The position numbers and the translations under genes are program-made. The notes under the pieces are model-generated. The model ran no database searches and was not told where the DNA came from. It worked only from the letters and a program-made list of their open reading frames with translations. 52,273 bases of DNA from positions 1-52,273 of IMG/VR virus record IMGVR_UViG_3300025382_000011; one strand, 5' to 3'. This DNA is from a virus (taxonomy: Duplodnaviria; Caudoviricetes). Positions 5,416 through 48,572 of the stretch are shown here, in pieces (the first letter of the stretch is position 1; each line of letters opens with the position of its first letter).

Positions 5416-5452
5416 TTAAACCCACTCGAGACTCAGTATAAGATGGGTCTAA
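5416..5452 (+). repeat. dispersed bipartite element, copy 1
   Basis: ttaaaccca-ctcgag-actcagtat-aaga-tgggtctaa; 31/37 identical to 48536-48572. Confidence 0.8.
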
Positions 5453-5835
5453 AGCCCATACCACTTACACATCATATAAACTCTCCCCGGCTTTTTCTTC
5501 TGCGCAGGGCGCTCACTCGGCGGGGCGATTTGATCGAGCTTTTTATCACCTTTGGGAATTTCCCTTTGGATTTGTGCTTGGGCTTTCCGGGCTTCTGCCT
5601 TTTCGTTTTTCTTCTTACGTCGATACGCAGCACGTCTGATCCTCTGGGCCTCTCGGTATTCTGGGTCATTCGCCATTCTCTTTCTGTGCGAGGCGTTTCG
5701 GCGTAAGCGACGGCCTTCCATTAGCGCCAACTTGCGCTCCGCTTCTTTTTGCTTTGCGGAGTCGGTGGAGTCGTCCGGCAACGGCGCATCTGGTGATGGA
5801 GAATTTGATGGCGATTTGGGTGTAGGAAAGTCCAT
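5449..5835 (-). CDS. basic helical protein, possibly the frameshifted C-terminal part of the GcrA-like gene
   Basis: Arg/Lys-rich helix. Overlaps 5666-5920 by 170 nt in the +1 frame. True start uncertain. Confidence 0.5.
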   Translation of the reverse strand: MDFPTPKSPSNSPSPDAPLPDDSTDSAKQKEAERKLALMEGRRLRRNASHRKRMANDPEYREAQRIRRAAYRRKKKNEKAEARKAQAQIQREIPKGDKKLDQIAPPSERPAQKKKPGRVYMMCKWYGL

Positions 5836-5920
5836 TGTTTAAGCTCCGCTCAAGCTCTGCGTCGAGTTCGGGGGTCCATTTGATGTTGACAGGAACACGG
5901 GTGATGTCTTCTGGGCTCAT
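5666..5920 (-). CDS. GcrA-like HTH regulator
   Basis: WTPELDAELERSLNNGLSYTQIAIKFSITRCAVAGRLHRL matches the GcrA N-terminal consensus (WT.E....L..L...G.S...IA..LG.TRNAVIGK.HRL). Confidence 0.75.
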   Translation of the reverse strand: MSPEDITRVPVNIKWTPELDAELERSLNNGLSYTQIAIKFSITRCAVAGRLHRLRKAKRSGAQVGANGRPSLTPKRLAQKENGE

Positions 5921-6120
5921 GTGTGGGCTCGACGGATTGCAGATGCGACGTTGTTTGAAGGGTCAAGTGCCTCGGCGTGTCTCGCGCATTCCTCACGGAT
6001 CTGGGGCTCGATGTAATCGAAGGCGATCTCGGCAAGGTCCTTCATGGTGAAATATGTTGGAGCGTCGTCGAAGAATGTAGCGAGACGCAGGATGAGTGCT
6101 TCTTTTTCACCTTTGGTCAT
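5917..6120 (-). CDS. hypothetical protein
   Basis: ATGA-coupled to its neighbours, GGAG RBS. Confidence 0.65.
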   Translation of the reverse strand: MTKGEKEALILRLATFFDDAPTYFTMKDLAEIAFDYIEPQIREECARHAEALDPSNNVASAIRRAHT

Positions 6121-6328
6121 TGCACCTCTCCATCGCGGCGAGTTTGAGCTTGTGGTTGATGATCGTGAATTTGTTCGAGATCGTGTTGATGCTGGCCTTG
6201 TAGTGCGCGGCGATTTGTTTGTGCGTTAGGCCGTCGCGTTTGAGATCGAGAAGGGCTTGCTCGTAGTCTGTAAGTTCGGCGGGGTCTTTGTAGAGCCGGG
6301 ACTGCGTGTCTGTTCGGACATTGTTCAT
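6107..6328 (-). CDS. LuxR/sigma region 4-like HTH protein
   Basis: LTDYEQALLDLKRDGLTHKQIAAHYKASINTISNKF. Confidence 0.65.
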   Translation of the reverse strand: MNNVRTDTQSRLYKDPAELTDYEQALLDLKRDGLTHKQIAAHYKASINTISNKFTIINHKLKLAAMERCNDQR

Positions 6329-6519
6329 TTGTGAAGCTCCTTGATGGCTGCGATAAGCGCCGCTTTGCGTTCCTCAATTTTCATCTTTCCGACAATATAC
6401 GGATCGTAGGGATCGAAGTCTGCGATGATCTTTGCAACTGCGTGTAACGCATCGTTGTAACCTGCCTCATAAAAGATTTTGAGAAGTGTGCCTTTTGATG
6501 TTGCGGAGTTTGACATCAA
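6325..6519 (-). CDS. hypothetical protein
   Basis: ORF overlapping start/stop with both neighbours. Confidence 0.6.
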   Translation of the reverse strand: MMSNSATSKGTLLKIFYEAGYNDALHAVAKIIADFDPYDPYIVGKMKIEERKAALIAAIKELHK

Positions 6520-6623
6520 TAATCTCCGCTCAAAAGCAGGTGAACAATGTATGCCACGCCTCCTGCAAAGAAGATGATCGCAGCATAAATGGCAATTTCG
6601 TTTAAGAGCGCGTCGTCGATCAT
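6516..6623 (-). CDS. small single-pass membrane protein
   Basis: ATGA-coupled start at 6623: MIDDALLNEIAIYAAIIFFAGGVAYIVHLLLSGDY. Confidence 0.55.
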   Translation of the reverse strand: MIDDALLNEIAIYAAIIFFAGGVAYIVHLLLSGDY

Positions 6624-7228
6624 GCGTTGTATCTCGAAACTGTCGCGTTCCACACAGGGGAAAGCGCGAGCTTTGTCGGGTCTTGTGCGTCTTGGGTTAT
6701 GAACTGCGTTGCGACAGGGCCGACGCCAAGCGCCATCCAATAGCGAGCCCCCGTAGCGGGTTTTCCGTTCCATGATTGGAGATAAGAGAACACAAGCACG
6801 TCTGAATAGTTTTGCGTTGACGCCATGTAGTTTGGAAGGTGTTGCTCAAAGCTCACAATTTGTTCGCCGTTGCTGAATGCTGGCGGGGAGCATTTTAGAA
6901 AGTCAAACTTTGGTTTGTTCTCATATGTTGAGGTTATGGCTTGGAATTCGCCCCATCCAATCGCAGGTGAGAGAACGACCTTTTTGTTGTTCGGGTAGTC
7001 ATCGCGCCATTCGGCAATCCCAAAGCCTGGGTTGTAACGGTAATACCAGCGGTTCAACCATGTGCCCACTGCGTCATAGTTATTGTAGAGCATTGAGTCA
7101 GAGCCGGTGTCGTAGGAGAAGACACTGGTAAAGTTTGGGGCACCTTCGGCCTTGTAATCGAAACGTCTAAGCTCATGCGTTTTGAAAAGCGGCCAGTAAG
7201 CCGGGACGAAAAGTGGACTATTCGCCAT
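6620..7228 (-). CDS. hypothetical protein (aromatic-rich)
   Basis: 202-aa ORF in the operon; no family recognised. Confidence 0.7.
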   Translation of the reverse strand: MANSPLFVPAYWPLFKTHELRRFDYKAEGAPNFTSVFSYDTGSDSMLYNNYDAVGTWLNRWYYRYNPGFGIAEWRDDYPNNKKVVLSPAIGWGEFQAITSTYENKPKFDFLKCSPPAFSNGEQIVSFEQHLPNYMASTQNYSDVLVFSYLQSWNGKPATGARYWMALGVGPVATQFITQDAQDPTKLALSPVWNATVSRYNA

Positions 7229-7478
7229 AATAATATCCCCCTGTCACTGGGCCGTAAGACGAGCCCTCATAAGCGCCGTTTGATCCGTAGTAATTTGTTG
7301 AGCCGGAATTGGAATAGGAGTTCCCTAAGTATGCACCATTCTGGCCGTAGTAATTTGTCGCTCCGTTGTTGGAATAGGCGCTCCCTTTGTATGCGCCATT
7401 TGGCCCGTAGAAGTTTGTTTCTTGCGCATTGGCGGAATTGCATAGCAGCACTACGCAAATTGTTAAAGTCCTAAACAT
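7218..7478 (-). CDS. secreted protein with three 20-aa repeats
   Basis: Signal peptide MFRTLTICVVLLCNSANA, then 3x TN(F/Y)YG.NGAY.G.(A/S)Y. Confidence 0.7.
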   Translation of the reverse strand: MFRTLTICVVLLCNSANAQETNFYGPNGAYKGSAYSNNGATNYYGQNGAYLGNSYSNSGSTNYYGSNGAYEGSSYGPVTGGYYYGE

Positions 7479-8018
7479 TTACGCTCCTTTTGTGCAACGT
7501 GATGGTTTGATTGCTTTTAAGCCGAAACCAAACATAACTTCTCCTAAAGAGCAATAAGTTATGTCGAAGTCTGCTTTGTAAATGTAGCGAAAGTCAGACA
7601 TCGGAGTGATCCCGACCTCTGCGTCGTATTTGGGTTGATGAAGAAAGCCCAGACTTTCTGGTTGGATCGTGCGGGTGTGAGACGGATCGCCCCAAGCCCA
7701 AACGCTTTGCCAGTTCGGCACGGTTGCGAAAAGTTGCCCGTCAGGTTTGAGGATGCGCCAGAGGTCTGAGAATTGCGCGAAGAAGAATTTGTAATCCCCT
7801 TGCGCTCCTGTGTGTTCAAGGACTTCGTAAGCATGGATCTCGTCGAAAGTGTCGTCAGGAAATGGGAGCGGGAGAGACATGAGGTCGTGTATAACATCGG
7901 GCGCGTGGTCTGGATTGATGTCAAGTGTGGTGAGGGCCGTGAAGGTTGGGGTTTCCGGCATGTGGATGAGTTTATCTCTACGTGATCCGCATCCGATTAA
8001 AAGCTCACGATAGCTCAT
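7479..8018 (-). CDS. class I SAM-dependent methyltransferase (Methyltransf_11-like)
   Basis: LLIGCG, TLDINPD, PLPFPDDTFDEIHAYEVLEH, WRILKPDG, WGDPSH. ATGA-coupled start at 8018. Confidence 0.8.
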   Translation of the reverse strand: MSYRELLIGCGSRRDKLIHMPETPTFTALTTLDINPDHAPDVIHDLMSLPLPFPDDTFDEIHAYEVLEHTGAQGDYKFFFAQFSDLWRILKPDGQLFATVPNWQSVWAWGDPSHTRTIQPESLGFLHQPKYDAEVGITPMSDFRYIYKADFDITYCSLGEVMFGFGLKAIKPSRCTKGA

Positions 8019-8383
8019 TCCAGCCCCTCCAAAAGATCGTCGAAGTCGAGCGAGACGCTTTGATTGCGTGTGTTTTGTGCTGGTGCGGTTGTGGGTTGCC
8101 AATTAAAAATCTTTTTCGCGGTTTCCTCTGGGTCAGAAAGCCATTGCTCCCAGAACTTTGGGAAAGAACTTTCGTGGATGGTTGCGACGAGTCGTGATGA
8201 TCTGTTCGCGCCGACAGAAAAGAAGGCTGAGATTTCCATCTGACTATCTTCTCTCGGTGCGATGTAAAGCGCGGGGATCACGGAGATCCCCACACCCTGT
8301 CCCGGTGCGAATGCTGGTAAGCCCGATATGCGCGGGCGTGATGGGTCGAAGAAGTGCATTGCGAAGGGCTCCTTATTGGTCAA
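8015..8383 (-). CDS. hypothetical protein
   Basis: ORF tiles the operon and ends LDFDDLLEGLE. Confidence 0.65.
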   Translation of the reverse strand: MTNKEPFAMHFFDPSRPRISGLPAFAPGQGVGISVIPALYIAPREDSQMEISAFFSVGANRSSRLVATIHESSFPKFWEQWLSDPEETAKKIFNWQPTTAPAQNTRNQSVSLDFDDLLEGLE

Positions 8384-9863
8384 AGTCGGAAAGGTTTGCG
8401 AGGATGAGGGTGTGTTTGGTTCGAGTCTCGAGGACGTAGCGAAGGTTTGCTTCTTGGCGCTGTTCGCTTTCGGTCTTTGCGTATTTGGATGGGATGCGCC
8501 AAGGATCGAGGTGAACTACGTTGTCCCATTCGAGCCCTTTCGCCTTGTGGCCTGTGGCCAAGATCACCTGCCCATTGTTTTTCGCAAATAACGAGTTAAG
8601 CTCCTCAATAAGCTCTGCAACAGTGCGGGGCTTTTTCGCGGAGATAACTGCGATGATGCTTTCGTATTTGTCAGTCGTGTTGGCAGCTTTGGTGCTATCG
8701 CCGTTGACCTCGGCCTTGGACTTTTCAGTTTCATGCCAGTTTGTGAGAAGCGGCAAGAACTGATCGACCTTGGTTGTTAAGTCTGGGCAGAGCTTTTTGA
8801 CGATTGTTGAAAGGCCACGTCCTATCTCGCGTCCTAACATATTCACGCCAATACCCTGACGGATCAGCTTGAAGGCCATAGAAATTAAAGGCGCGTTGTT
8901 GCGGCAAAGCACTGCGGTGTCGCCGGAAGGGATTGCTTCCCACGTCCACTTTTCACCAGACAGATCGTAGATCGCGCCTTGCGGGTTGGAAGGGGCGGCG
9001 CGATATTGAGGGGCGTGATTGTGCTGGCGTTCGACGACGCTTAACGGGCACCTGAATGTGGTGTTGAGGGGGAGTTCGATCCACTCGGATCGTAGTGCTT
9101 TGATGGTGTCCATGCTGGAACTGTCTGCGCCTCGAAAGGCATAGATTGCTTGTCGGGGGTCGCCCACGACGATGAGCCTGTTAGCGGCGCATTTACGAAG
9201 CATCTGGTGGTTGAGTGGGGAAAGGTCTTGGGCTTCATCGACAAGGACTGTGTTGAAGCGTGGGAAGTCTCCCGGGAAGACCACGGGGAGGTAGATCTGG
9301 TCATCATAGGTTATGACTCCTTTTAGGCCTTCTTCGATTGACTCGCAGAGGATGCGTCGGGACAATTTGCACTCGTCAGGGGTGAGCAAAAGGTCATAGT
9401 CAGAAGCAATGTTCTGCCATGTGTCTGGTGTGTCAGGCAAGAGCCCTTTGGCGTTTTGGAATTGGGTAGGAACTACGCCTCTCTGCATGGCGTAGACGAC
9501 GAGTTGTCGGATCTCGTTCCATGAGCCTTTGCTAGATGGGAAGGCCTTGAGAGCCTCGGTCGTGAGGCGTCCAAGTTTCTTGTCGTCGATGAGCATTCGT
9601 GGCTTGTTGATGGTTTTGCCCCATGCGCGATGGCCAAGGCCATTCATGGTCATGACTGTGAAGTTGGGCGGGAAACGCTTTTCGAGTTCCTCTTTGATCT
9701 TCTTGTTGAACGCGAGCGCAAGGATGGGTTCTTTCGGCAGGACGGACGCGAGCATCTGCAGGGTCGTGGTCTTGCCGGTGCCAGCGAGGGCATTAATCAT
9801 AATGGACGAAGGGCTTTTGGCCGCTGCGATGATGTATTGTTGTTCTGGGGTTGGAGATAACAT
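8373..9863 (-). CDS. UvrD/Rep-like superfamily 1 helicase
   Basis: ALAGTGKT, LAFNK, VDEAQD, VGDPRQAIYAFRGA, FRCP, TGHKAKGLEW, YVLETR. Confidence 0.92.
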   Translation of the reverse strand: MLSPTPEQQYIIAAAKSPSSIMINALAGTGKTTTLQMLASVLPKEPILALAFNKKIKEELEKRFPPNFTVMTMNGLGHRAWGKTINKPRMLIDDKKLGRLTTEALKAFPSSKGSWNEIRQLVVYAMQRGVVPTQFQNAKGLLPDTPDTWQNIASDYDLLLTPDECKLSRRILCESIEEGLKGVITYDDQIYLPVVFPGDFPRFNTVLVDEAQDLSPLNHQMLRKCAANRLIVVGDPRQAIYAFRGADSSSMDTIKALRSEWIELPLNTTFRCPLSVVERQHNHAPQYRAAPSNPQGAIYDLSGEKWTWEAIPSGDTAVLCRNNAPLISMAFKLIRQGIGVNMLGREIGRGLSTIVKKLCPDLTTKVDQFLPLLTNWHETEKSKAEVNGDSTKAANTTDKYESIIAVISAKKPRTVAELIEELNSLFAKNNGQVILATGHKAKGLEWDNVVHLDPWRIPSKYAKTESEQRQEANLRYVLETRTKHTLILANLSDFDQ

Positions 9864-9894
9864 GTGAATACCTTTCGAATACGGCGCACAGCGC

Positions 9895-10317
9895 CTACAG
9901 GAAGAATGAGATCTGGTATGTGCCGGATGGGGTGAAGGATAGTTTTGCTGCGATCCCGTCTACGAAGGGGCCTTGGCCGGAGATCATGGAGTCAACTTTG
10001 AGGGACTCCAGCAAATGCCCGATAGAGTTCTGGTAATGCGCGGCATGATCTTTGGCCATATAACCAACGTGAAAGTCACGTTGCTCGTCCATCGACTCAA
10101 GGTCAAAGCCAGTGCCTTCGAGGGTTTCGACCAGTTCCTCACGGGCCTCGGATGGCAAGGTCTTGGTGTCAAGCCAGACCGCGATGGCGTTGGGATCATA
10201 CGGATTGTCAGGCTCAGGCCGGAGTTCGAGAGGATGTCCGGCGGGCAAGGATGCGAGGAGTGCTTTTGCGGGTGGGCGGAAGTGTGCGCCTACAAGGGGG
10301 GCGTGGTGTATAGGCAT
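9895..10317 (-). CDS. HIRAN domain protein
   Basis: LVGAHFR..LELRPEPDNPYDPNAIAV..HVGY. Confidence 0.75.
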   Translation of the reverse strand: MPIHHAPLVGAHFRPPAKALLASLPAGHPLELRPEPDNPYDPNAIAVWLDTKTLPSEAREELVETLEGTGFDLESMDEQRDFHVGYMAKDHAAHYQNSIGHLLESLKVDSMISGQGPFVDGIAAKLSFTPSGTYQISFFL

Positions 10318-10355
10318 AGTAGAGGACTCCGTGGTTTGAAGGGGCAAAGCCCCGC

Positions 10356-10670
10356 TTAGTGTGGTTTGGTGTTCGGATAGGTGTTGGCGAAGATCTCGGC
10401 GGCTTCAAGGGCCGCTTCGATGTTGGGGCCTCCTTTCTTGAGAACCTCCGTGACCATGGCGAGCGTAATGTCCACGGGGTGTTTGTGTTTTGTGGCAGCA
10501 TAAGACGCGATGCAAAGCATCAAAAATCCAGCTTGGATTGTGTTGATGGACGCGACCGCGAGAACGTCTGCGTTGTAATCGTGGAGATCGAACTGATCTC
10601 TTAGAAACGACTCGGTTTTTTGGTAGGCAAAGACTCCAACGTCTTTAAGGATGTGGTCAGGAGTGCTCAT
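10356..10670 (-). CDS. hypothetical protein
   Basis: Start MSTPDH follows AAGGA. Confidence 0.6.
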   Translation of the reverse strand: MSTPDHILKDVGVFAYQKTESFLRDQFDLHDYNADVLAVASINTIQAGFLMLCIASYAATKHKHPVDITLAMVTEVLKKGGPNIEAALEAAEIFANTYPNTKPH

Positions 10671-10914
10671 TGTCTTGTCCTTTGAGGTCTGCCCGTAGGG
10701 CACGGATGCGCTCCATCATCTCGTCGATGATTTCCGCGATCTCGAGTTTAGAAAAGCGCCCAGCTTTCCCACGTTTTTCAACGTCGTTGAGAGAGCGAGT
10801 CCATTGGGCGATGAGGCGGCGGTAGAGCGCGAGCTTTGCGTCAGGGCTGGAGTTGGTGGGGTGGACGCATAGAGCGTCCACGGCTGCGAGGTATTGAGAG
10901 ACGAGATGTGACAT
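10657..10914 (-). CDS. hypothetical protein
   Basis: ORF tiles the operon. Confidence 0.6.
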   Translation of the reverse strand: MSHLVSQYLAAVDALCVHPTNSSPDAKLALYRRLIAQWTRSLNDVEKRGKAGRFSKLEIAEIIDEMMERIRALRADLKGQDNEHS

Positions 10915-10923
10915 GACGGGCCC

Positions 10924-11220
10924 TTAGAAGGTGATCTCGCGTTCCGGGGTTGCGGTGGCGTCGATGGAGAGCAGAGGGATCTCGAAGCCTTTGGAGAAGG
11001 TGAGGGTGTTGACGATGGCCTCGACCTTGCCCCATGCGGCCTGTAGTGCGTCCTCAACGTCCCCTCCTGTCCCGCGAGCTTTAAGCTGCAGGTCTTTGGC
11101 TTCGTGTTTGATCTCGATGGCTGCAGTCCAGCGATCATCTGAATACTGGTATGAAGAACGGAAAAGAGAGATCTCTGCGTTCATGGACTCGAGACGAGCG
11201 ATGATCTGGGCAAATGACAT
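10924..11220 (-). CDS. hypothetical protein
   Basis: Start MSFAQ follows AAGGAG. Confidence 0.65.
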   Translation of the reverse strand: MSFAQIIARLESMNAEISLFRSSYQYSDDRWTAAIEIKHEAKDLQLKARGTGGDVEDALQAAWGKVEAIVNTLTFSKGFEIPLLSIDATATPEREITF

Positions 11221-11236
11221 GATAGGCTCCTTTAGG

Positions 11237-11273
11237 TTAGACACATTAGATACTGAGTAGAAGGTGGGACTAA
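11237..11273 (-). repeat. dispersed bipartite element, copy 2 (inverted)
   Basis: - strand ttagtccca-ccttct-actcagtat-ctaa-tgtgtctaa. Confidence 0.75.
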
Positions 11274-11629
11274 AAGGTGAGGTCTAAGAGTGCATCTAAT
11301 TCATCGAGTTGCTCCTGTTTGCTTTTGTGCTTGAAGCGCTCGGCATCGGCGCGTTGCTTTGCGCGTTCGAGTTTGGTGGCGGCGTCGGGGGTGGATTTCT
11401 GCCAAGCGTCCACGACATATTGGATTGGCATGGACGGCTGCGCGATGGCGACTGGGTGGGTGTAGGAGTAGACCTCGCGCTGGCGAAGAACACGCAAGAG
11501 AGACTCAGCGCCTTCGACTGACAGGGGGAACGTAAGTTCCGAGGTGTAGCCCTTGGGGGCAGGGAGATGGAGATGGATTTTGTCGCCGGAGGTGTAGACT
11601 GTGGAGGCGTGATCTGGAATACGTGGCAT
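11270..11629 (-). CDS. hypothetical protein
   Basis: AGGAG RBS and its own promoter. Ends LDELDALLDLTF. Confidence 0.7.
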   Translation of the reverse strand: MPRIPDHASTVYTSGDKIHLHLPAPKGYTSELTFPLSVEGAESLLRVLRQREVYSYTHPVAIAQPSMPIQYVVDAWQKSTPDAATKLERAKQRADAERFKHKSKQEQLDELDALLDLTF

Positions 11630-11654
11630 GAGGTAAGCTCCTGATTAATAAGGT

Positions 11655-11683
11655 ATATTAGCATATCGGTGGGTCTAAGTCAA
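11655..11683 (-). promoter_or_regulatory. sigma70-type promoter with a TTAGACCCA half-site adjoining the -35
   Basis: - strand TTGACT-N17-TAATAT. Confidence 0.7.
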
Positions 11684-11695
11684 CCACAAAATCTC

Positions 11696-11878
11696 CTACT
11701 GGTTCAGGAAGATTGCTGAAAGCAATCCGTTGGGGCAGGTGGCTTTGCGCATGTGTTCGTCCCAGATGAATAGGTATGAGAAGATTAGAGTTCCGCTGAA
11801 CGCGACATAGATTAGGATTGAGACGAAAGCCCAGCCTACTGCGAAGGCGATGAGACAGACGATGCCGAGAGCAAGCAT
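11696..11878 (-). CDS. small membrane protein
   Basis: Hydrophobic N-terminal ~38 aa; GGAGG RBS. Confidence 0.55.
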   Translation of the reverse strand: MLALGIVCLIAFAVGWAFVSILIYVAFSGTLIFSYLFIWDEHMRKATCPNGLLSAIFLNQ

Positions 11879-11881
11879 GAA

Positions 11882-12265
11882 TTAGTCCTCCCAGCAGGCG
11901 TCATGTGCGCGCTGGCGCATCTCGTCGCGTTCACGGTAGTCCTCGCGGGAGTAAGCGATGTCGTCCCACTCGTCTTCATGTTGCTCTTCAAGTTCAACGA
12001 TGTGGTCGAGGATTGCGTCGTCTACGGAACGGAGAGATGAGAGGGTGTAGAAAAGTTCGCCGGTTGCCTCGAACGCAGGGCCGAGTCCATCAAGACGCAG
12101 GACAAGAGTTACAATGTCGAAGTCAGGCTCGGAGCCGGGGTCGTAGTTCTCAGGTGGCCCGTTGAACTGACCGGACGGGGCGGTGCCGAAAGAGCGAACT
12201 TGGATTTCAATTTCGAGTTCGAAGTCAAAGCCCATGAGGGAGATGTTGGCGTGTGTAGTGGACAT
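11882..12265 (-). CDS. acidic hypothetical protein
   Basis: AGGAG RBS, 127 aa. Confidence 0.7.
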   Translation of the reverse strand: MSTTHANISLMGFDFELEIEIQVRSFGTAPSGQFNGPPENYDPGSEPDFDIVTLVLRLDGLGPAFEATGELFYTLSSLRSVDDAILDHIVELEEQHEDEWDDIAYSREDYRERDEMRQRAHDACWED

Positions 12266-12304
12266 ATTTGGCTCCTATGTAGTGCGAAGGTGACAGTTGG
12301 AAGG

Positions 12305-12736
12305 TTAAGCGTTGCCTTGTGGGAGAGGCCAGAAGTAGGGAAGGTCATCACGCTCTGTCCAATTGAATTGAGCGTAGTGGCCTCGATCTTTCCGCAACAA
12401 ATTGCTTCTGTGAGAAGCGTGGACTGCATCAAGGCCAAGCCAGTAAGGCTTTGTGGGGTTGGAGTCATCGGCGTTGTAGAAGGCTGCGATCTTTGGGCCG
12501 GTGTTGTCGTCGTAGCCCCGACGGAGCCACTCGCGGCACATTTCGATCCCGTAGGTGCAGAGGAGCTGTGTGTGCCCGCGCCACATGTTGACGGCGGGAT
12601 GTGACTGCCAGCCATAACGGGGGTTGGTGAGGGCGTTGAGGATTTGAAGGGTTTCGACGCGCTGCTTGCCGAGGCGTTGGCGGTCGAGACATCGGGCGGA
12701 TGCAGCGAAGTCTGCGTAGGGTAAGAAGGTTTGCAT
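12305..12736 (-). CDS. pyrimidine-dimer DNA glycosylase/DenV-related protein (MSMEG_6728-like family)
   Basis: MQTFLPYADF..LDRQRLGKQRVETLQIL..HPAVNMWRG..SHRSNLLRKD..Y. Confidence 0.85.
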   Translation of the reverse strand: MQTFLPYADFAASARCLDRQRLGKQRVETLQILNALTNPRYGWQSHPAVNMWRGHTQLLCTYGIEMCREWLRRGYDDNTGPKIAAFYNADDSNPTKPYWLGLDAVHASHRSNLLRKDRGHYAQFNWTERDDLPYFWPLPQGNA

Positions 12737-12744
12737 TGTGGCTC

Positions 12745-12921
12745 CTAGTATGTTGTGCGCAGGATGTATTGACGCTCGGCATAATCGTCGAGCGCAGATT
12801 GGAATTCGGACAGCGCTTCTTTGAGAAGGGCTGCGTCGAGTTGGTGACAGTCTTCCATGTAGAAGCCCATGAGTCTGCAGACCTCCTGTAAGGCGTGAGG
12901 GTCGATCTCGAGTTCGATCAT
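12745..12921 (-). CDS. hypothetical protein (58 aa)
   Basis: Manual translation MIELEIDPHALQEVCRLMGFYMEDCHQLDAALLKEALSEFQSALDDYAERQYILRTTY; GAGG upstream. Confidence 0.55.
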   Translation of the reverse strand: MIELEIDPHALQEVCRLMGFYMEDCHQLDAALLKEALSEFQSALDDYAERQYILRTTY

Positions 12922-13012
12922 ACCTCTGACTCCTCGAAGATTGGCAGGGCTGATTTCATGGTTTCAATCCAGATGTGGAGGTCGCGGAGCGCTGAAAGCG
13001 CAAGGCCGTTTT

Positions 13013-13080
13013 TGGGCCTTATGGTTTTGTCGCATATAATGGGCCTAACGTCAAGGGGTTTAACCTTACGCTGGGCCCAT
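13013..13080 (-). promoter_or_regulatory. cluster of half-sites around a TTGACG -35
   Basis: tgggcctta (13013), tgggcctaac (13040), ggggtttaacc (13055) and tgggcccat (13072). The -10 is weak. Confidence 0.5.
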
Positions 13081-13112
13081 TATTTTACATGCTGAAAGGT
13101 GCGCCTTTGGCG

Positions 13113-13718
13113 CTAGAATAGTTCGTCATCAGATAGAACTGGTATGCCTAGAGCCCGGCAGTCGTCGTCGCGGAGGGGGATGCTGCCGTCGTAGACGTCT
13201 GGGTATGGCTCGGGCATGTTGGCCGCTCGATGGGTTTCGTTGATTTTGATTTTATGCTGGATGAGATCGTCGTCTGGAGTCCAGTTGGTTGGGGGTGTTT
13301 GGTTTGGATGGGCTGGATGGGGGCGCACGATTTCCTGTAAGCTGGCGTATTTGAACCTGTCGAGTGTTTTGGGTGCTGTGGGGGATTTGAGGCCAGATAG
13401 TTCGGGAGTGTCTGAGAGTTCGCTGTTGGGAACTCCCCGCTTGCGCTTTGCATATGCCGCCGCCCGCTTGTTCTTTGATGCCATGAGTCGAAAATGCTCC
13501 TCCTCTCTCGCAAGGATTTCCGCAGCCTCCATCGGGATAGAGTTGGTCAGGGCGAGCGTCTGGATTGCGCGGAGCGTCACCATTACGTCAGCGAGTTCTG
13601 GGTTTGCGGGGAGATTTTTGATCTCGGTTGAGATGAAGCGCTGGTAGGTTAGGGCGCAGTCTTTGCACTGCCTTGCCGCCGTGATGAGTGCGATCATGCG
13701 CTCTTGAGTTATTGCCAT
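13113..13718 (-). CDS. hypothetical protein
   Basis: AGGAG RBS, 201 aa. Confidence 0.75.
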   Translation of the reverse strand: MAITQERMIALITAARQCKDCALTYQRFISTEIKNLPANPELADVMVTLRAIQTLALTNSIPMEAAEILAREEEHFRLMASKNKRAAAYAKRKRGVPNSELSDTPELSGLKSPTAPKTLDRFKYASLQEIVRPHPAHPNQTPPTNWTPDDDLIQHKIKINETHRAANMPEPYPDVYDGSIPLRDDDCRALGIPVLSDDELF

Positions 13719-13761
13719 TTGGGATCTCCTGTTGAGGTTGAGGGGCTTGCCGCCGCCAGTA

Positions 13762-13792
13762 GAAAACGCCCCAGCGAGTTGGCCGGGGCGTT
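13762..13792 (-). terminator. probable rho-independent terminator
   Basis: aacgcccc/ggggcgtt stem followed by T residues on the - strand. Confidence 0.5.
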
Positions 13793-13798
13793 GGATTG

Positions 13799-13978
13799 TT
13801 ATCTGTAATCAATTGCTGTGGTTGAGCCGTCATTGAACTGGAAGGATAATGTGTCGCCGCCGCCAGCCGCCAGCGTGACGGAAAGATCGAGTTCTTGTGC
13901 GAGGCGGATGATTTCCCAGAATGCTGGCTTGCCGGGATAGGTTATTATGAATGTCTCTAATTGTTGAGCGTGTCGCAT
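13799..13978 (-). CDS. hypothetical protein (59 aa)
   Basis: Manual translation MRHAQQLETFIITYPGKPAFWEIIRLAQELDLSVTLAAGGGDTLSFQFNDGSTTAIDYR; GGAG RBS. Confidence 0.6.
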   Translation of the reverse strand: MRHAQQLETFIITYPGKPAFWEIIRLAQELDLSVTLAAGGGDTLSFQFNDGSTTAIDYR

Positions 13979-14000
13979 GGTTGGCTCCGTTTTTGAGGGG

Positions 14001-14027
14001 AAAGGAAAGGGGGCTCGAAAGCCCCCT
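14001..14027 (-). terminator. rho-independent terminator
   Basis: agggggc-tttcga-gccccct followed by ttcctttc on the - strand. Confidence 0.6.
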
Positions 14028-14034
14028 CTGGTTG

Positions 14035-14595: not shown

Positions 14596-14684
14596 TTTTC
14601 GACTCCTAGGTTATTGATTAGATTGTCAAACAGCGAGGCCCGGATGGGCCTAACAAAAACGACTCGCTCGTTTCTGATGGGTCT

Positions 14685-14712
14685 ATTATGCACGTTTTGG
14701 GGATAGGGTCAA
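14685..14712 (-). promoter_or_regulatory. leftward early sigma70-type promoter
   Basis: - strand TTGACC-N16-CATAAT immediately followed by AGACCCA (half-site). Confidence 0.55.
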
Positions 14713-14751
14713 TATAGGTTGGGCATAATTGTGCATTATGTTGGGGCCTTT

Positions 14752-14965
14752 TGTTCATGGGTATTATTTTTAGTCGCTATATGCTCTTTGGGGTTGTAAT
14801 GGGTTTAACCTTGTGCTAGGGCCTCTGGATGTATCCTAGTTTGAAAAAAAAATATAGAGAAGAGAGAAGGTTAAACCCACTATATACTCAATATATAATA
14901 GGGCTAAGGTTAGGCCCATTATGGACAGAAAAGCGCAAGGCCTATAAAAATGATACCCATGAGCA
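14752..14965 (+). repeat. long imperfect inverted repeat around an A/purine tract in the divergent intergenic region
   Basis: 14752-14772 vs 14945-14965 match 19/21; 14797-14812 vs 14906-14921 match 14/16. A9 tract at about 14844. Confidence 0.75.
14871..14907 (+). repeat. dispersed bipartite element, copy 3
   Basis: ttaaaccca-ctatat-actcaatat-ataa-tagggctaa. Confidence 0.65.
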
Positions 14966-15004
14966 TGAGGGGTGAATATTGGTGATAATTATCACCCACC
15001 CCTA

Positions 15005-15033
15005 TTGACATGCCCGCCACGGCATGGCATAAG
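15005..15033 (+). promoter_or_regulatory. rightward sigma70-type promoter
   Basis: TTGACA-N17-CATAAG. Confidence 0.6.
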
Positions 15034-15072
15034 GATTATGTTGTTTGAAATCGCTAACAAATGGAGCCACCC

Positions 15073-15243
15073 ATGACAAATGTTGTCACGGATTCAACGC
15101 ATATGACGGTTAAGACGCTTATTGAAATGCTGCAAGACCTCAACCCTAACATGGCAGTTTACGTCAACGATATTGACGGCGAGAGGGGTGAAATAAAAGC
15201 GCCCAGTTTTAACTTCATAGACGGGTTTGTAATTGTAGAATAA
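15073..15243 (+). CDS. small hypothetical protein
   Basis: GGAG RBS before MTNVV; MTVKTLIEMLQDLNPNMAVYV is a common small phage protein pattern. Confidence 0.6.
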   Translation: MTNVVTDSTHMTVKTLIEMLQDLNPNMAVYVNDIDGERGEIKAPSFNFIDGFVIVE

Positions 15244-15302: not shown

Positions 15303-15400
15303 TACCCCCCAGGGACTGGCCTTTGAAGGGATTGTTGTAATGCTTAGCCCCACCCAAAATGATAGGAGTCGAGAAAAAGGTGATGGACCTATTACACTCC

Positions 15401-15429
15401 TTGCATAACACCTAGAGCCACATTATACT
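15401..15429 (+). promoter_or_regulatory. sigma70-type promoter for the late/packaging operon
   Basis: TTGCAT-N17-TATACT. Confidence 0.65.
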
Positions 15430-15448
15430 CAATCTCCAGTGGGCCTAT
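15412..15448 (+). repeat. dispersed bipartite element, copy 4 (degenerate, overlaps the promoter)
   Basis: ctagagcca-cattat-actcaatct-ccag-tgggcctat. Confidence 0.55.
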
Positions 15449-24351: not shown

Positions 24352-25452
24352 ATGGCAAGGTCATTGAAAATCTGCGTTTACGCGATCAGCAAAAATGAAG
24401 AACAATTTATGGAGCGGTTTTGCCGATCTGCAGAGGATGCGGATTTAGTTTTAATCGCTGATACAGGATCGACGGACGAAACTGTCGCTTTGGCTCAAAA
24501 GGCTGGAGCGGTGGTTTATAACATTTGTATATCTCCTTGGCGTTTTGACCATGCGAGGAATGCAGCGCTGGCGCTTGTTCCGGGGGATTTTGATGTTTGT
24601 ATAAGTTTGGACTTAGATGAAGTGCTGGAACCCGGATGGAGAGAGGAAGTTGAAAGAGTTTGGGAACCAGATGCGACAAGAATGCGGTATCTGTTTGATT
24701 GGGGAAGCGGCTTAGTTTTTAATGCGGAAAAAATTCATTCAAGAAAAGGATATTTCTGGCACCACCCGTGCCATGAATACCCAAGGCTTGATGCGAGAGT
24801 GTCAGAAAAATACGTTAATTCTGACAAATTACTCGTCAGCCATTACGCAGATAATTCAAAAAGTAGAGGACATTATTTTGATCTTTTAGCCCTTTCGGTA
24901 AAAGAAGACCCTTATTGTGCGAGAAATGCGTTTTATTACGCGAGGGAGTTGTATTTTTACGGACGTTTTGATGAAAGTATTGTGGAGCTTCAAAGATATT
25001 TGGAGATGCCGAATGCTGTTTGGCACCATGAACGCTGCTATGCTTTGCGGGTGATGGGAAAATGTTATGAGGCAAAGGGGCTGATAGAGGTGGCAGAGGG
25101 GGCGTATCATCGGGCGGCTGCGGAAGCGCCGTTTACCCGGGAACCTTGGATGGCGCTGGCAAATATGTTCCATGCTCAAGGGCGCTGGGCGGATTGTTAT
25201 GCCGCAGCCCTTCGTGCGCTTCAAATTACCCAAAGAGAACACGTTTATACCTGTGAACCGGAAAGCTGGGGAGCTTTACCGCATGATTTAGCGAGTATCG
25301 GGGCGTGGCATTTGGGATTGAAGCGGGAAGCTCTGCATCATGTCCAAGAAGCCCTTGTTTTTGCACCTGACAATTTGCGCTTGCAAGGAAATGCTAAATT
25401 GTTTGAGGACTCAATTAGCCCCATTAAAGAGGCAGAAAGTGTTGTGGAATAG
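24352..25452 (+). CDS. family 2 glycosyltransferase with C-terminal TPR repeats
   Basis: ICVYAISKNEE, ADTGSTD, FDHARNAAL, SLDLDE (DxD), HE, FYYARE, then TPR helices. Confidence 0.9.
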   Translation: MARSLKICVYAISKNEEQFMERFCRSAEDADLVLIADTGSTDETVALAQKAGAVVYNICISPWRFDHARNAALALVPGDFDVCISLDLDEVLEPGWREEVERVWEPDATRMRYLFDWGSGLVFNAEKIHSRKGYFWHHPCHEYPRLDARVSEKYVNSDKLLVSHYADNSKSRGHYFDLLALSVKEDPYCARNAFYYARELYFYGRFDESIVELQRYLEMPNAVWHHERCYALRVMGKCYEAKGLIEVAEGAYHRAAAEAPFTREPWMALANMFHAQGRWADCYAAALRALQITQREHVYTCEPESWGALPHDLASIGAWHLGLKREALHHVQEALVFAPDNLRLQGNAKLFEDSISPIKEAESVVE

Positions 25453-30214: not shown

Positions 30215-30251
30215 TTAGCCCCATTTTGGATTGAATATAGAATGGACCTAA
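30215..30251 (-). repeat. dispersed bipartite element, copy 5 (inverted, spans the terL start)
   Basis: - strand ttaggtcca-ttctat-attcaatcc-aaaa-tggggctaa. Confidence 0.6.
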
Positions 30252-45024: not shown

Positions 45025-47421
45025 ATGGCTTATGGCAATCCTTTAGCAGAACTTCCCCGCCTCCGCGCTGGTATTGGCAAAATGGAAAGCGGGAATGATT
45101 ATTCAGCCCTTGGTCCTGTAATTAAACGCAAGCAAGGGACAGATCGGGCTTATGGAAAATACGGCGTGATGGGAGAAAATATCCCATCTTGGACCGAAAA
45201 AGCTCTTGGTCGTCCTTTAACTGCATTTGAATTTTTACACAGCCCAGAAGCTCAAGAAAAAGTTTTTGAAAATCAAATGTCCAGCAATCTTTTGAAGTAT
45301 GGATCTGCAAAAGATGCTGCATCTATTTGGTTTTCGGGGCGACCTTATGCGGAAGCTGCACGGGCTGGTGCGCGTGACATAAACATGCCTGTTTCCCAAT
45401 ACGTGAACTCCGTTATGGGCGGTGGCCCGGAAGTTCGTGGTGAACAATATGCTGAAAATCAACCAGCTGAATGGGCGAGTGATTGGACACCTTCTCGTCT
45501 TGCTCCACAAAATGCCCCAAGACCCGCAGTTGAATGGGCGGAAGAATGGACCCCTTCACGTCTTGAAACTGCACCCACTGAAGCTGCGCCTACAACTGGT
45601 GGGGTGGAATTTTTAGAAGACAGCAAAATTCAACCAGATGAACTTGCAGCAAAAGGTCAACCTCTCCCAGCACAGGCGGGCCAGCCTGTTCCCGTCAAAC
45701 CAATTCCCGCTCCTGTTGTAACAAAACCTGCTCCTTGGGGAATGGCGGAAGAAGCAGCAAATGCTTTACTTGCAGGATATTTACCAGAAGCAATGGCTCC
45801 GTTTACAGGACGAACTGCCGAAGAATATCAAAAAGGCAAACAAATTTATGAAAGAGAATATCCACTTAGAAGCGGGCTTGCAGAGGTTGGTGGTGGAGTT
45901 GCACAAGGCTTGGCTCTTGGTCTAACAGGAATGGGCGCTGTCGGTGCAGTTGCCCCACGAATTGCTCAAGCAGTGCCTCGACTTCGTCCTGCAATTCAAA
46001 CAGCACAAAGATGGATGGCTGGGCAAGCTGGACGCACAGCACCATTTCCAAGTGGCGGAACCTTACGTCAACCCGGAATGGTTGCAGCTGCGGAGAGAGT
46101 TGCAGCTCCAATCGTCGGGGGCGGTTTGGCTGGAGGTATGAACGCTTTCATCAACCAAAGGCTTCGCCCAGATGTTCCTGTCGGAGAACAAGTAGCAGAA
46201 GGTGCGCTTTTTGGATCATTTGCACAACCTTTAACTCATTTAGCGTTTGGGCGCCCGGGCCCTACGTTTGCTCCACACATTGAAGAAAGTGCAAGACAGA
46301 ATGCAATTCTTGCAAGGAATAAATATAATATTCCGATCACTCCTTGGCAGGTTTCTCCTCTCGAAGAAGAACAACAAATCGCAAGACAGGCTGTGTCAAG
46401 TGAACAAGGCTTAGAACAAGTTAAAAAGATCGGTGAAGAAGTTGGAAAGACTTTTAACCATTCCGGTCCTTTTACAGAGACAGAAGTTGGAAAATCTGTT
46501 GATGCTATCGGTAATGTGATGGAGACTGCCGCAAACGGTATTCGTCTGCCTTCCGTCAATCGTGGCACAACTGCATTAGCGCATGATATTATTAATCTTG
46601 CAAATGAAATTACAAATGATGTTGTGGATGATGCTGAAAGAAATAAATTACTTAGAATGGTGCAAAAGTTTAGCGATAGATTATTGCTGACACCTGTGTC
46701 CGGCAGTGTTATTCAAAATTTAACTCAGAAAAATGGTTACATTGACAAGAACTTAAATCCTGCTTCAAATTCGCTCAATAAATATTTTAACGCAAGAATG
46801 AAGGATCTTGTTTATGATTATTTTTATCGAGCAGATCCTGCTCACGCAATGTTATGGGAAGAACTGCGTAACGCTTACAAGAATTCACTTTTAGGTCTTA
46901 AGATTGCGACTCCGTCTGGAGTTCCAGATGTTTCAAAATTACAAGAAGCCGCAAAGAAAGTTCGGGCAAGAGGAAATATGGCAGAACTTGCTGAAATTTC
47001 TTCCCTCATTCCAAAAGTTGTGAATAAAGGAACGGGAGCTGTAGAACGTATTGGCAAGGAAGCGCCTCGAAGAGAAGGCGGTCATTACGGCATTTTTGGA
47101 ACGGCAGCAGCTGGCGGTTTAACTGGTAGTGCAATTGAGCGTCTTTATCCAGAAATATCAAAACAAATTTTTGAAGGAAGCGAAATGCCATTAATGCCTG
47201 CGTTGTTTGCCGCAGGATCTGGCGCAGCATTGTATGGTGGTAAAAAAGCATATGAGGCAGCTAGGGATAGATTTTTACAAAGTCCTATAATTCAAAATCA
47301 AATTTTGGCAGGACGAGGGCCCGCTATGCAGCAAGCAGCATTTGTTAATCCTTTAACGTCTGGGGCTGTGTCTGGTAGACTGACTTATCAAGAAAGACGC
47401 AAAAAGAGGGAAAAGAAATGA
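45025..47421 (+). CDS. internal virion protein with N-terminal lysozyme-like/transglycosylase domain
   Basis: IGKMESGNDYSALGP..AYGKYGVM..NIPSWT..FL.SPEAQE..AASIWFSG. Confidence 0.75.
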   Translation: MAYGNPLAELPRLRAGIGKMESGNDYSALGPVIKRKQGTDRAYGKYGVMGENIPSWTEKALGRPLTAFEFLHSPEAQEKVFENQMSSNLLKYGSAKDAASIWFSGRPYAEAARAGARDINMPVSQYVNSVMGGGPEVRGEQYAENQPAEWASDWTPSRLAPQNAPRPAVEWAEEWTPSRLETAPTEAAPTTGGVEFLEDSKIQPDELAAKGQPLPAQAGQPVPVKPIPAPVVTKPAPWGMAEEAANALLAGYLPEAMAPFTGRTAEEYQKGKQIYEREYPLRSGLAEVGGGVAQGLALGLTGMGAVGAVAPRIAQAVPRLRPAIQTAQRWMAGQAGRTAPFPSGGTLRQPGMVAAAERVAAPIVGGGLAGGMNAFINQRLRPDVPVGEQVAEGALFGSFAQPLTHLAFGRPGPTFAPHIEESARQNAILARNKYNIPITPWQVSPLEEEQQIARQAVSSEQGLEQVKKIGEEVGKTFNHSGPFTETEVGKSVDAIGNVMETAANGIRLPSVNRGTTALAHDIINLANEITNDVVDDAERNKLLRMVQKFSDRLLLTPVSGSVIQNLTQKNGYIDKNLNPASNSLNKYFNARMKDLVYDYFYRADPAHAMLWEELRNAYKNSLLGLKIATPSGVPDVSKLQEAAKKVRARGNMAELAEISSLIPKVVNKGTGAVERIGKEAPRREGGHYGIFGTAAAGGLTGSAIERLYPEISKQIFEGSEMPLMPALFAAGSGAALYGGKKAYEAARDRFLQSPIIQNQILAGRGPAMQQAAFVNPLTSGAVSGRLTYQERRKKREKK

Positions 47422-48539
47422 AAAAGGTTACAGCGGGTCTAACGGCCCTTTTACTATCAAGCACAAGTTTGAATGCAGCTACACTTCTGCCAAACGGTCA
47501 GCAGCAATTCATCGACGGCAACGGTAAGCCTTATGCGAGCGGCAAAGTATATTTTTACTCCAACTTTCCTGCTTGCACGGTTTTGAAAAATACATGGAGT
47601 GACTCAGGACAAACAGTTCTCAACACAAATCCTGTCGTGCTTGATGCTGCCGGTCGTGCAACAATTTTTGGCTCCGGCACGTATTGCCAGAAATTAACAG
47701 ACTCAAACAACAATGTGATCTGGACAACGCAAACCGGTGACACGTCAAGCACATCGACGCTTGGCTGGGGTTCAACTTCTGGCGGCACGGCAAATGCGCA
47801 GACCGTAACGGTGTCAGGCTTTTCCTCAACAAACGGTCAAACATTTTACTTTGTTGCTGGATCGACAAACACAGGAGCGCTCACGCTTTCTGTCAACGGT
47901 GGTGCGCCGATCTCTGTCGTCAAACCAACTACATCCGGCACATCTATTCTTATCGGAAATGAAGTTGCTGCAGGAACTGTAAATGGTGTTACTTATTATT
48001 CTACAACCGGACAATTTCAGCTTATCACCAACAACATAAATGTTGCTACACCTCCCGGGCAGCTGGCGACCTATGCTATGACAAGTTGTCCTGCTGGCTG
48101 GTTGAGTGCAAATGGTGCTGCGGTGTCACGTTCCATTTATTCCATTTTGTTTTCTAATATCGGAACAACGTGGGGATCTGGTGACGGAGCTACCACATTT
48201 AACGTGCCAGATTTACGCGGTATGTTTGTTCGCGGCACAGGCACAAACACTGCTTATCCAGCAGCTGTCGGTCAAGCTGTCGGCACATACGCCGCTGATA
48301 CATACTTAAATCATAACCACACAGCTACTTCTAGTGATGCTGGACATACCCATTCTTATACTGGAGCAAATGGTGGTGGTGCCGCAGCTCCCGGTGTTGG
48401 TGGACAAGGTGTCAACAATGTTGCTGCAACCACAGGAACTGGTTATGCCTCAATCACCACAACTGTTGCGAACTCAACAACGGGCGGCACGGAAACAAAA
48501 CCTAAAAACTACGGGGTTTTGTATTGCATTAAATATTAA
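47418..48539 (+). CDS. tail fibre (podovirus tail-binding N-domain + tail-collar domain) with predicted signal peptide
   Basis: QQFIDGNGKPYASGKVYFY..NTNPVVLDAAGRA; CPAGWLSANGAAVSR..LFSNIGTTWGSGDGATTFNVPDLRG; ETKPKN....YCIKY. Confidence 0.88.
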   Translation: MKKVTAGLTALLLSSTSLNAATLLPNGQQQFIDGNGKPYASGKVYFYSNFPACTVLKNTWSDSGQTVLNTNPVVLDAAGRATIFGSGTYCQKLTDSNNNVIWTTQTGDTSSTSTLGWGSTSGGTANAQTVTVSGFSSTNGQTFYFVAGSTNTGALTLSVNGGAPISVVKPTTSGTSILIGNEVAAGTVNGVTYYSTTGQFQLITNNINVATPPGQLATYAMTSCPAGWLSANGAAVSRSIYSILFSNIGTTWGSGDGATTFNVPDLRGMFVRGTGTNTAYPAAVGQAVGTYAADTYLNHNHTATSSDAGHTHSYTGANGGGAAAPGVGGQGVNNVAATTGTGYASITTTVANSTTGGTETKPKNYGVLYCIKY

Positions 48540-48572
48540 GCCCATTCGAGACTCAGTATAGAGTGGGTTTAA
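48536..48572 (+). repeat. dispersed bipartite element, copy 6 (fills the convergent junction)
   Basis: ttaagccca-ttcgag-actcagtat-agag-tgggtttaa; both flanking TAA stops lie in its arms. Confidence 0.8.

Follow-up and report, generated by a model that had tools for sequence, protein, structure and literature searches.

What purpose is served by a 37-bp inverted repeat that recurs six times in one phage genome, at the borders between its gene modules? The question is raised by a single IMG/VR virus record of 52,273 bases (IMGVR_UViG_3300025382_000011; Duplodnaviria, Caudoviricetes), classed as linear and 94% complete, the whole of which is referred to here as the window. To our knowledge, almost nothing is known about the timing of gene expression in uncultured freshwater phages without an RNA polymerase of their own. 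Comparison of the window with its relatives strongly supports a reading of the repeat as a functional, genome-wide cis system of this phage family, and the six elements are most likely paired sites for a symmetric dimer, or a higher oligomer, of a putative phage-encoded protein. That these sites serve as dispersed operators or roadblocks of a putative transcription regulator is judged here to stand at about even chances.

The 37-bp element

Copies 1 to 6 begin at positions 5416, 11237, 14871, 15412, 30215 and 48536 of the window, and the six, as located in a preliminary description made from the letters of this genome, stand far above chance. The consensus offered in that description, searched with up to three mismatches, matched five of the six places (5416, 11237, 14871, 15412 and 48536; two of them on both strands) and gave no match in 100 dinucleotide shuffles. 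The sixth copy (30215, minus strand) lies more than three mismatches from the consensus and reached 42.7 bits under a matrix derived from all six copies, a figure that is circular for those six. All six scored 38.8–47.1 bits with this matrix, as compared with 17.5 bits for the next-best place, a degenerate second copy abutting copy 3, and with maxima of 8.3–16.0 bits in 20 shuffles. Inverted 9-bp arms separated by exactly 19 bp are present in six of six copies, and the identity of 31/37 reported between copies 1 and 6, which lie at opposite ends of the series, was reproduced with six of the 37 positions differing.

In form, the element is a three-part near-palindrome centred on position 19, consisting of TTARRCCCA, 3 bp, TATACTCAGTATA, 3 bp and TGGGYYTAA, with 20–28 of its 37 positions self-complementary. 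Its core had been described as off-centre and directional; the direction was upheld, positions 13–18 (TATACT; T18/30, A25, T25, A30, C24, T24) being kept better than the mirror positions, but the core is not simply off-centre, given the near-palindrome about position 19. TATACT, a −10-like hexamer, lies inside the gap at four of the six positions. The sequence GACTC was correctly ascribed to two copies, namely copies 1 and 6; as a feature of the element, the GANTC methylation site was rejected, being present in 5 of 35 copies across the relatives and hence not conserved. Likenesses to a DnaA box, an IHF site and a CtrA box were dropped because invariant positions of those consensuses mismatch. 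Rfam and tRNA scans returned no matches, and a literature string search for the motif yielded only unrelated primer-type matches among the matches listed.

Conservation at six gene borders

Relatives were gathered by an IMG/VR search with the capsid protein, which returned 145 related stretches, and 80 kept loci were scanned for the element. Four long relatives (G001–G004, the window being G000) were compared together with an incomplete relative (G006) and two outgroups without the element (G005 and G008); capsid identity to the window is 97% for G001, about 85% for G002–G004 and 60% for G005. A scan with a symmetrised matrix found six places above 14 bits in each of G000–G004, at the identical six gene borders as judged by mapping the window proteins onto the relative genomes, while G005 had no place above 14 bits and the maxima of 10 shuffles did not exceed 14.9.

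Copy 1 (5416..5452) lies between genes 5449-5835(-) and 4855-5382(-) and is syntenic in G001–G004 and G006, being found in the relatives upstream of the 4855-5382 homologue. Copy 2 (11237..11273, minus strand) is placed 16 nt upstream of the ATG of gene 10924-11220(-), and likewise upstream of the homologue of that gene in the relatives. Copy 3 (14871..14907, plus strand), with an AT-rich core (TATATACTCAATATATAAT), adjoins the homologue of gene 14035-14595, lying upstream of it in G000 and G001 and downstream in G002–G004. Copy 4 (15412..15448, plus strand), the arms of which are the most degenerate, stands 21 nt upstream of the ATG of gene 15470-16279(+) and about 22 nt upstream of its homologue in the relatives. 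Copy 5 (30215..30251, minus strand) spans the terL ATG in the relatives; in the window, the terL start codon at 30242 falls within its right-hand arm as read on the plus strand (ATGGACCTAA). Copy 6 (48536..48572, plus strand) fills the 29 bp between the stop codons of two convergent genes, the last tail-fibre gene at 47418-48539(+) and the primase-like gene at 48569-49756(-), and occupies the same place in the relatives. The settings previously assigned to these last copies, with copies 3 and 4 in the divergent region 14595-15470, copy 5 at the terL start and copy 6 at the convergent junction, therein hold good.

Among the 80 kept loci, those with at least 84% capsid identity carry the element both before terL and where the late operon ends, as far as their flanks extend to these places, and the terL copy is found in every relative with a TerL of at least 80% identity and is absent at 51%. 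In G006, which is 81% complete, five inverted arm pairs keep the 19-bp gap, one of them at a new position inside the structural module, and their interiors are GC-richer and largely unrelated. The cores of copies 1 and 6 decay in G002–G004 and the arms stay. It had been anticipated that a real system would keep both spacing and core in its relatives: the spacing is indeed kept, but the core is not in G006, nor for copies 1 and 6 in G002–G004.

When the arms-only pattern was searched against all of IMG/VR, 52 stretches matched, of which 30 encode homologues of window proteins and belong to the same phage family, so that the element may serve as a practical family marker; the remaining 22 look like chance palindromes. 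This near-restriction to the family, together with the six syntenic copies in each of four relatives, bears out the genome-wide cis system that had been proposed. A mobile palindrome of the REP or MITE kind was rejected, exactly six copies being found at identical borders in five genomes, not in variable places or number. An inverted-repeat scan of the outgroup G005 gave no recurrent motif. G005 has instead a long, GC-rich and perfect hairpin (stem about 28 bp; L120, about 26120–26200 in record coordinates) just upstream of terL, which in the present family is the place of copy 5.

Half-sites and their spacing

The element had been seen as a set of six copies; these are real but form only part of the system, as single arms occur besides, some 15 more times in each genome. 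The half-site is 10 bp long (5'-TTAGGCCCAY-3'; arm-matrix consensus TTAGGCCCATT), and its matrix was trained on the elements of G000–G004, with those of G006 left out. Half-site matches number 21–24 per genome in G000–G004, as against 4–16 in shuffles and 4 in G005. In six genomes, the half-site matches form 26 inverted arm pairs at a gap of precisely 19 bp, with no pair at 17, 18, 20 or 21 bp.

Outside the six pairs, single arms in the window are located at 5373..5382 (plus strand; 34 bp left of copy 1 and containing the ATG of gene 4855-5382(-)), 11669..11678 (TTAGACCCAC, minus strand; just upstream of gene 11296-11664(-)), 13039..13048 (TTAGGCCCAT, minus strand; in the gap between genes 13113-13718(-) and 12745-12921(-)), 14644..14653 (minus strand; about 50 nt upstream of the ATG of gene 14035-14595(-)), 14676..14686 (ATAGACCCATC, minus strand), 14799..14808 (TTAAACCCAT, minus strand; located with the half-site matrix), 14910..14919 (plus strand; 2 bp past copy 3), 15344..15353 (TTAGCCCCAC, plus strand; within a conserved non-coding block upstream of copy 4) and 25415..25424 (TTAGCCCCAT, plus strand; where the glycosyltransferase gene ends, 80 nt short of gene 25506-26882). 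Across six genomes, 43 of 47 single arms stand at gene edges or between mapped genes; 31 are sense and 16 antisense, counts that are not independent across relatives, and the paired sites carry both orientations. The arms are densest in the divergent control region directly upstream of gene 15470-16279, 8–9 of them falling within about 800 bp. Layouts larger than the pair are also kept: the arm-34-arm-19-arm layout at copy 1 recurs in G000–G004 (gap-62 pairs five times, direct gap 34 four times), as does the arm-19-arm-2-arm layout at copy 3 (direct gap 30 five times), the third arm of which is retained in five of five genomes.

Hairpin or double-stranded protein site

No compensatory changes between the arms were found. 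The Watson–Crick fraction equals the independent-column expectation at each variable pair (4-34, 5-33, 6-32, and 10-28 to 13-25); over 35 aligned copies, pairing is 67.1% as compared with 66.1% in shuffles, 114 of 500 of which were as high, and the covariation score is 0.172 as compared with 0.157, with 87 of 500 as high. Arm symmetry without compensatory change is a symmetry of sequence, the signature of a symmetric protein reading double-stranded DNA, and it points to such a protein as the probable reader of this element.

The converse proposal, that the elements act as nucleic-acid hairpins, whether as intrinsic or bidirectional terminators, sites of RNase processing, priming structures or cruciforms for a nicking enzyme, is considered very unlikely. 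It can call upon a T-run 3' of copy 1 and a pyrimidine- or T-rich run 3' of copy 3, both on the transcribed minus strand and both in five of five genomes, upon folds of −10 to −15 kcal/mol for some copies, upon the G005 hairpin at the place of copy 5, and upon a core TACTC that may resemble nick-site consensuses of some Pseudomonas phages. Against these stand the arms without covariation, in which about one-third of the cells are unpaired, the variable 19-nt interior, the weak sense-strand RNA folds of copy 2 (−0.1 to −2.8 kcal/mol) and copy 4 (−3 to −7 kcal/mol), a terminator scan that calls none of the six, and the lack of an Rfam match. An intrinsic (Rho-independent) terminator was accordingly discarded on the missing covariation, the 19-nt interior, the presence of T-runs only after copies 1 and 3 and the negative terminator scan (0/6), although copies 1 and 3 may also help termination, given the T-rich runs on the transcribed minus strand. 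A rolling-circle origin for an HUH Rep protein, or a priming hairpin, was likewise set aside, the stem being without covariation and the loop not conserved in G006; no HUH protein was found among the window proteins searched. The priming hairpins suggested in the preliminary description, on the supposition that no primase is visible, are not supported, given arms that do not covary and the primase-like gene at 48569-49756.

Recombination sites had also been suggested. Known recombination core sites have a crossover spacer of 2–8 bp between their arms, to which a 19-bp gap in 26 of 26 pairs bears no likeness, and no recombinase was found among the proteins searched; the suggestion was abandoned. 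The 24 sequencing runs listed for the window consist throughout of freshwater DNA contigs. In the contigs from four runs over positions 1–20000, neither strand-changing joints nor molecule ends were seen at the copies, a result that counts as a null only, since such ends are invisible in contigs.

Overlap of half-sites with predicted promoters

A leftward sigma-70-like promoter, P_L (TTGACC-16-CATAAT, 14685..14712, minus strand), is predicted upstream of gene 14035-14595 and was flagged by a generic promoter scan. The pattern TTGnnn-16/17-TAnnnT, its hexamers read by eye, stands about 90–98 nt upstream of the ATG of this gene in five of five genomes, and in all five an arm begins within the last 1–2 bases of the −10; in the window, this is the single arm at 14676..14686, the first bases of which overlap the predicted −10 in an arrangement also found in G001–G004. 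On the rightward side, the predicted promoter P_R (TTGCAT-17-TATACT, 15401..15429, plus strand) uses the left core half of copy 4 as its −10. The hexamer TTGCnn is found 16–17 bp before the TATACT core of copy 4 in five of five genomes, a TGn precedes this TATACT in four of five (G001–G004), and the arms of copy 4 fall at about −24..−16 and +5..+13 relative to P_R. Copy 4 is therefore, by consensus prediction, a conventional sigma-70 promoter of the plus arm. A third promoter-like site precedes the cassette between copies 3 and 4, where four of five genomes have an arm after a TTGACA hexamer; the full promoter, TTGACA-17-CATTAT, was flagged in G001 only.

The convergent copy had been taken to speak against a promoter or operator. 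Half-sites nonetheless overlap three predicted sigma-70 promoters at conserved positions, and an operator role is compatible with a copy between converging genes because a bound protein can act as a roadblock at the end of an operon.

Could the elements themselves be promoters for the host RNA polymerase, with or without a host factor and with no dedicated phage binder? In the bidirectional form of this proposal, an arm would supply a weak −35 (TTARRC), with the −10 at positions 24–29 or 14–9, or in the TATACT core. The fit of copy 4 to sigma-70 in five of five genomes speaks for it, as do copy 3, which reads TTAAAC-17-TATAAT in G000 and G001 only, and the Shine–Dalgarno sequence and ATG that follow 16–22 nt downstream of copies 2 and 4. 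The sigma-70 −35/−10 arrangement that is present at copy 4 is, however, lacking at copies 1, 2, 5 and 6; copy 6 has no gene to drive either way, and copy 5 contains the terL ATG. Moreover, the cores decay (copies 1 and 6 in G002–G004) or all differ (G006) while the arms and the gap stay, the single arms lie at varied positions relative to independent −35/−10 pairs, and the generic promoter scan passes none of the six, all of which renders this proposal decidedly improbable.

Two further observations concern the divergent region. A non-coding block of about 100 nt upstream of P_R (15236-15411) shows high conservation across five genomes. A half-site marks its start, a terminator-like hairpin of the minus strand (15249-15271) bounds it, and its core reads GGCAAAGCATTACAACAATCCC on that strand. 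Folding of this block, which lies upstream of copy 4, revealed no RNA structure kept among the genomes; the block may encode a small RNA or act as regulatory DNA. The contigs from the four runs over positions 1–20000 reveal strain variants, including forms that skip 15012-15281; in contigs of two runs (X1 and X2), the small gene cassette 15061-15243, just past the TTGACA hexamer, is missing or substituted. As the small genes of the relatives differ at this place, the cassette appears to be swappable behind a conserved promoter.

A possible operator and roadblock regulon

The operator and roadblock reading may be set out as follows. The half-sites, about 20 per genome, would form a small regulon, in which single half-sites overlap the −10 and start of the leftward early promoter and others lie inside promoters of the divergent region, while the six inverted half-site pairs with their rigid 19-bp gap are stationed at the borders of gene modules. 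The protein, once made, would occupy these sites; the early promoters would be shut off or tuned, and at the border sites the bound protein would block or gate RNA polymerase between modules, the two converging operon ends included. The analysis shows that the elements are real, conserved and syntenic, that their spacing is fixed and their arms do not covary as in a hairpin, and that they overlap consensus promoters; protein binding, the identity of the protein and the choice among repression, activation and roadblock are what we infer.

Several points weigh against this reading. The promoters are consensus readings; the generic scan passed over all six elements, and its promoter-like sites show no enrichment relative to shuffles; copies 1, 2, 3, 5 and 6 are without a convincing −35 at the right distance. 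The direction of the core is conserved at each position, yet it is sense at two and antisense or ambiguous at the rest, and so does not track transcription. The arms, 28 bp apart from centre to centre, are rather widely separated for a simple dimer. Among some 60 window proteins scanned with PHROG and Pfam, no regulator or binder was recognised. Finally, the arm cluster lies beside a gene resembling a terminase small subunit and near AT-rich DNA, and half-sites could be used in packaging or in the initiation of replication.

A bolder version would have one protein of unrecognised fold, either the product of gene 14035-14595 or the terminase-like helix-turn-helix (HTH) protein in a second role, divide a virulent phage genome into timed modules by means of paired half-sites; this is offered as a speculation of rather low probability. 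Taken jointly with it, and equally doubtful, is the suggestion that the same element would act as an operator at promoters, a two-way roadblock at converging ends and a gate over the terL start, and would amount to an insulator-like boundary system. Were it true, such a boundary system would be of a kind not described for phages.

Candidate binding proteins

The only recognisable HTH among the proteins searched belongs to the product of gene 15470-16279 (plus strand, 269 aa), a small-terminase-like protein by structural matches, none of which reaches E 0.001. Its N-terminal half is strongly conserved and comprises an HTH followed by a long helix (mean pLDDT 61), and its best structural neighbours are small terminases (PaP3 and NV1 in the PDB at E 0.2–0.5; BFVD at E 2.9e-3, prob 0.92). 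This protein is at best a weak candidate for the binder of the half-sites. Its gene heads the plus arm, 14 kb upstream of terL, and three small open reading frames (ORFs) directly upstream of terL carry no terminase signature.

The half-sites might instead serve another DNA transaction, either as pac-type boxes of this terminase-like HTH protein or as iterons of a replication initiator, for instance the primase/helicase-like protein, with the border pairs secondary. The position of the densest cluster (8–9 arms in about 800 bp) directly upstream of 15470-16279, the small terminases as nearest structural neighbours of its product, the AT-rich core of copy 3 with an A-run nearby, and the abutment of copy 6 on the primase-like gene all lend themselves to such a role. 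On the other hand, six dispersed sites are conserved at module borders, whereas packaging sites and origins normally form a single cluster per genome; the arms keep fixed positions relative to the −10 hexamers of three promoters; G005 and G008, which lack the element, encode homologues of the terminase-like protein (38–39% identity) and of the primase-like protein (37–39%); and the terminase matches fall below significance. On balance this alternative is unlikely. The packaging or ejection signals put forward in the preliminary description are accordingly conceivable for the cluster by the small-terminase-like gene, but would leave the six conserved border sites unexplained.

The second candidate is the product of the first leftward early gene (14035-14595, minus strand, 186 aa), the homologues of which are confined to the window phage family. 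It is a candidate regulator, its model having a confident fold (mean pLDDT 84.9) that may be new: no PDB structural match was obtained at E ≤ 0.001, and an atlas search gave no usable match. PDB sequence searches with four early proteins and one profile returned nothing below E 0.07. This gene is among those present in the element-bearing genomes and absent from G005 and G008, others including 13113-13718, 10924-11220, 4007-4285 and 3782-3985. Five early proteins of unassigned function, all encoded on the minus strand, end in similar acidic tails, namely 14035-14595, 4855-5382, 4459-4749, 4007-4285 and 13113-13718 (DSLDDLLD, DLLDDLLDEAA, LADLLGDE, VDELLSGLD and LSDDELF), which suggests a shared docking partner for these predicted proteins.

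A ParB-family protein was the reader favoured by one of the earlier proposals, in which the elements were taken as parS-like sites for a ParB-methyltransferase (ParB-MTase) fusion. In its wider form, this explanation would make the elements loading sites, similar to parS or to KorB operators, for the fusion or for the small ParB-like protein 16730-17089, which would spread or slide from them so as to arrange the genome or silence it. The window encodes two ParB_N-like proteins, and the dispersed palindromic sites resemble in this the KorB operators of plasmid RK2 and the centromere repeats of phage N15. Nevertheless, the fusion consists of ParB_N and N6_N4 methylase domains with no recognisable HTH by Pfam, and its homologues (40–49% identity) are encoded by both element-free outgroups; no counterpart of the small ParB-like protein was detected in G002, a genome with all six copies; and a half-site with a 19-bp gap is unlike the 16-bp parS palindrome. 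The parS proposal was hence given up, and the wider one is left with a very slight probability.

Comparison with known systems

The gp71 stoperators of mycobacteriophage L5 and the C1 operators of phage P1 are asymmetric single sites in temperate phages with a known repressor. The present sites resemble both in being many, short and dispersed, mostly intergenic, with some on promoters and others within transcription units, where elongation could be halted by a bound protein; they differ in forming six inverted pairs with a rigid 19-bp gap, in a genome that looks virulent and has no recognisable repressor or integrase, and in a weak orientation bias of the single arms (31 sense, 16 antisense). 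Closer in lifestyle is phi29, a virulent phage reliant on the host polymerase, in which protein p4 binds long-spaced inverted repeats, represses early promoters and activates a late promoter lacking a −35. Inverted repeats with a long spacer in a divergent control region are common to both, whereas the phi29 sites are few and clustered with spacers of about 15 bp, in contrast to six dispersed border sites here, and the sequences are dissimilar; among the window proteins searched, none resembled p4.

The KorB operators of RK2 and the SopB/ParB repeats of N15 are compact palindromes of 13–16 bp read by an HTH of the ParB family. They share with the present system about 4–12 dispersed palindromic sites, some at promoters and some distant from any, and, on the reading given here, a single global reader protein, but the arms here are 28 bp apart from centre to centre, and the ParB-like proteins are without an HTH and do not track the element. 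In lambda cosB, where R sites for gpNu1 flank an IHF site, and in the pac boxes of SPP1, there is one cluster per genome next to the cut site. Short boxes for a small-terminase HTH, clustered upstream of or inside terS, with an inverted pair around a central element, are reminiscent of the divergent region of the window; the five further pairs conserved at other module borders are not. The paired architecture, a 10-bp half-site in six rigid inverted pairs at syntenic borders, is thus different from the phage operator systems described.

The element supplies a testable regulon, with a half-site of 10 bp, a paired form of constant length (37 bp), six places at which that form is conserved, and a few conserved early proteins of unassigned function as candidate binders. 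Should one protein prove to combine control of early promoters with a block to read-through at the borders of modules, the stoperator idea would be extended from temperate mycobacteriophages to a virulent podophage-like lineage in which the sites are built differently.

Gene layout and other features of the window

The genes of the window form two arms. The minus arm runs from about 14,595 to 1 and continues from the right end, 52,273, to 48,569; the plus arm spans 15,061–48,539. Replication and recombination genes make up the minus arm, including those for a UvrD-like helicase (8373-9863), an exonuclease (2829-3767), a Sak4-like annealing protein (1953-2810), an SSB-like protein (1460-1897), the ParB_N-methyltransferase fusion (2-1420), a DNA polymerase in two pieces (51600-52271 and 49778-51259) and the primase-like protein at 48569-49756 (minus strand; PHROG DNA primase at E 4e-37, Pfam DUF3987). 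The plus arm carries terL (30242-31609), a P22-type capsid protein (37351-38565), a collagen-like fibre, a glycosyltransferase, an endolysin, the portal and tail proteins.

No close phage relative was found in GenBank by megablast with 20 kb of the window. Judged by capsid protein, the nearest isolate is PAE2, a temperate Pseudomonas phage with 55% identity, which is uninformative on regulation because only the structural module is held in common.

The window is not circularly complete, about 0.86 kb being absent between its ends by comparison with G001, in which a terminal overlap of 93 bases points to a circular assembly. The absent stretch (L107 7145-8007) holds the last residues of the ParB-MTase, one ORF of at most 181 aa and the first ~129 residues of the polymerase exonuclease. 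The polymerase itself is split into an exonuclease part (51600-52271, minus strand; cut by the window end) and a polymerase part (49778-51259, minus strand), between which lie two small membrane-like ORFs (51378-51599 and 51262-51381); the split and the 73-aa ORF are also kept in G001–G004 and G006. Elsewhere, the minus-strand gene 9895-10347 encodes a HIRAN-domain protein (E 1e-5), and on the plus strand 16730-17089 encodes the small ParB-like protein, with a DGYHR motif, and 18694-19164 carries a NERD/PD-(D/E)xK-like nuclease signature (Pfam NERD at E 3e-4, under its cut-off).

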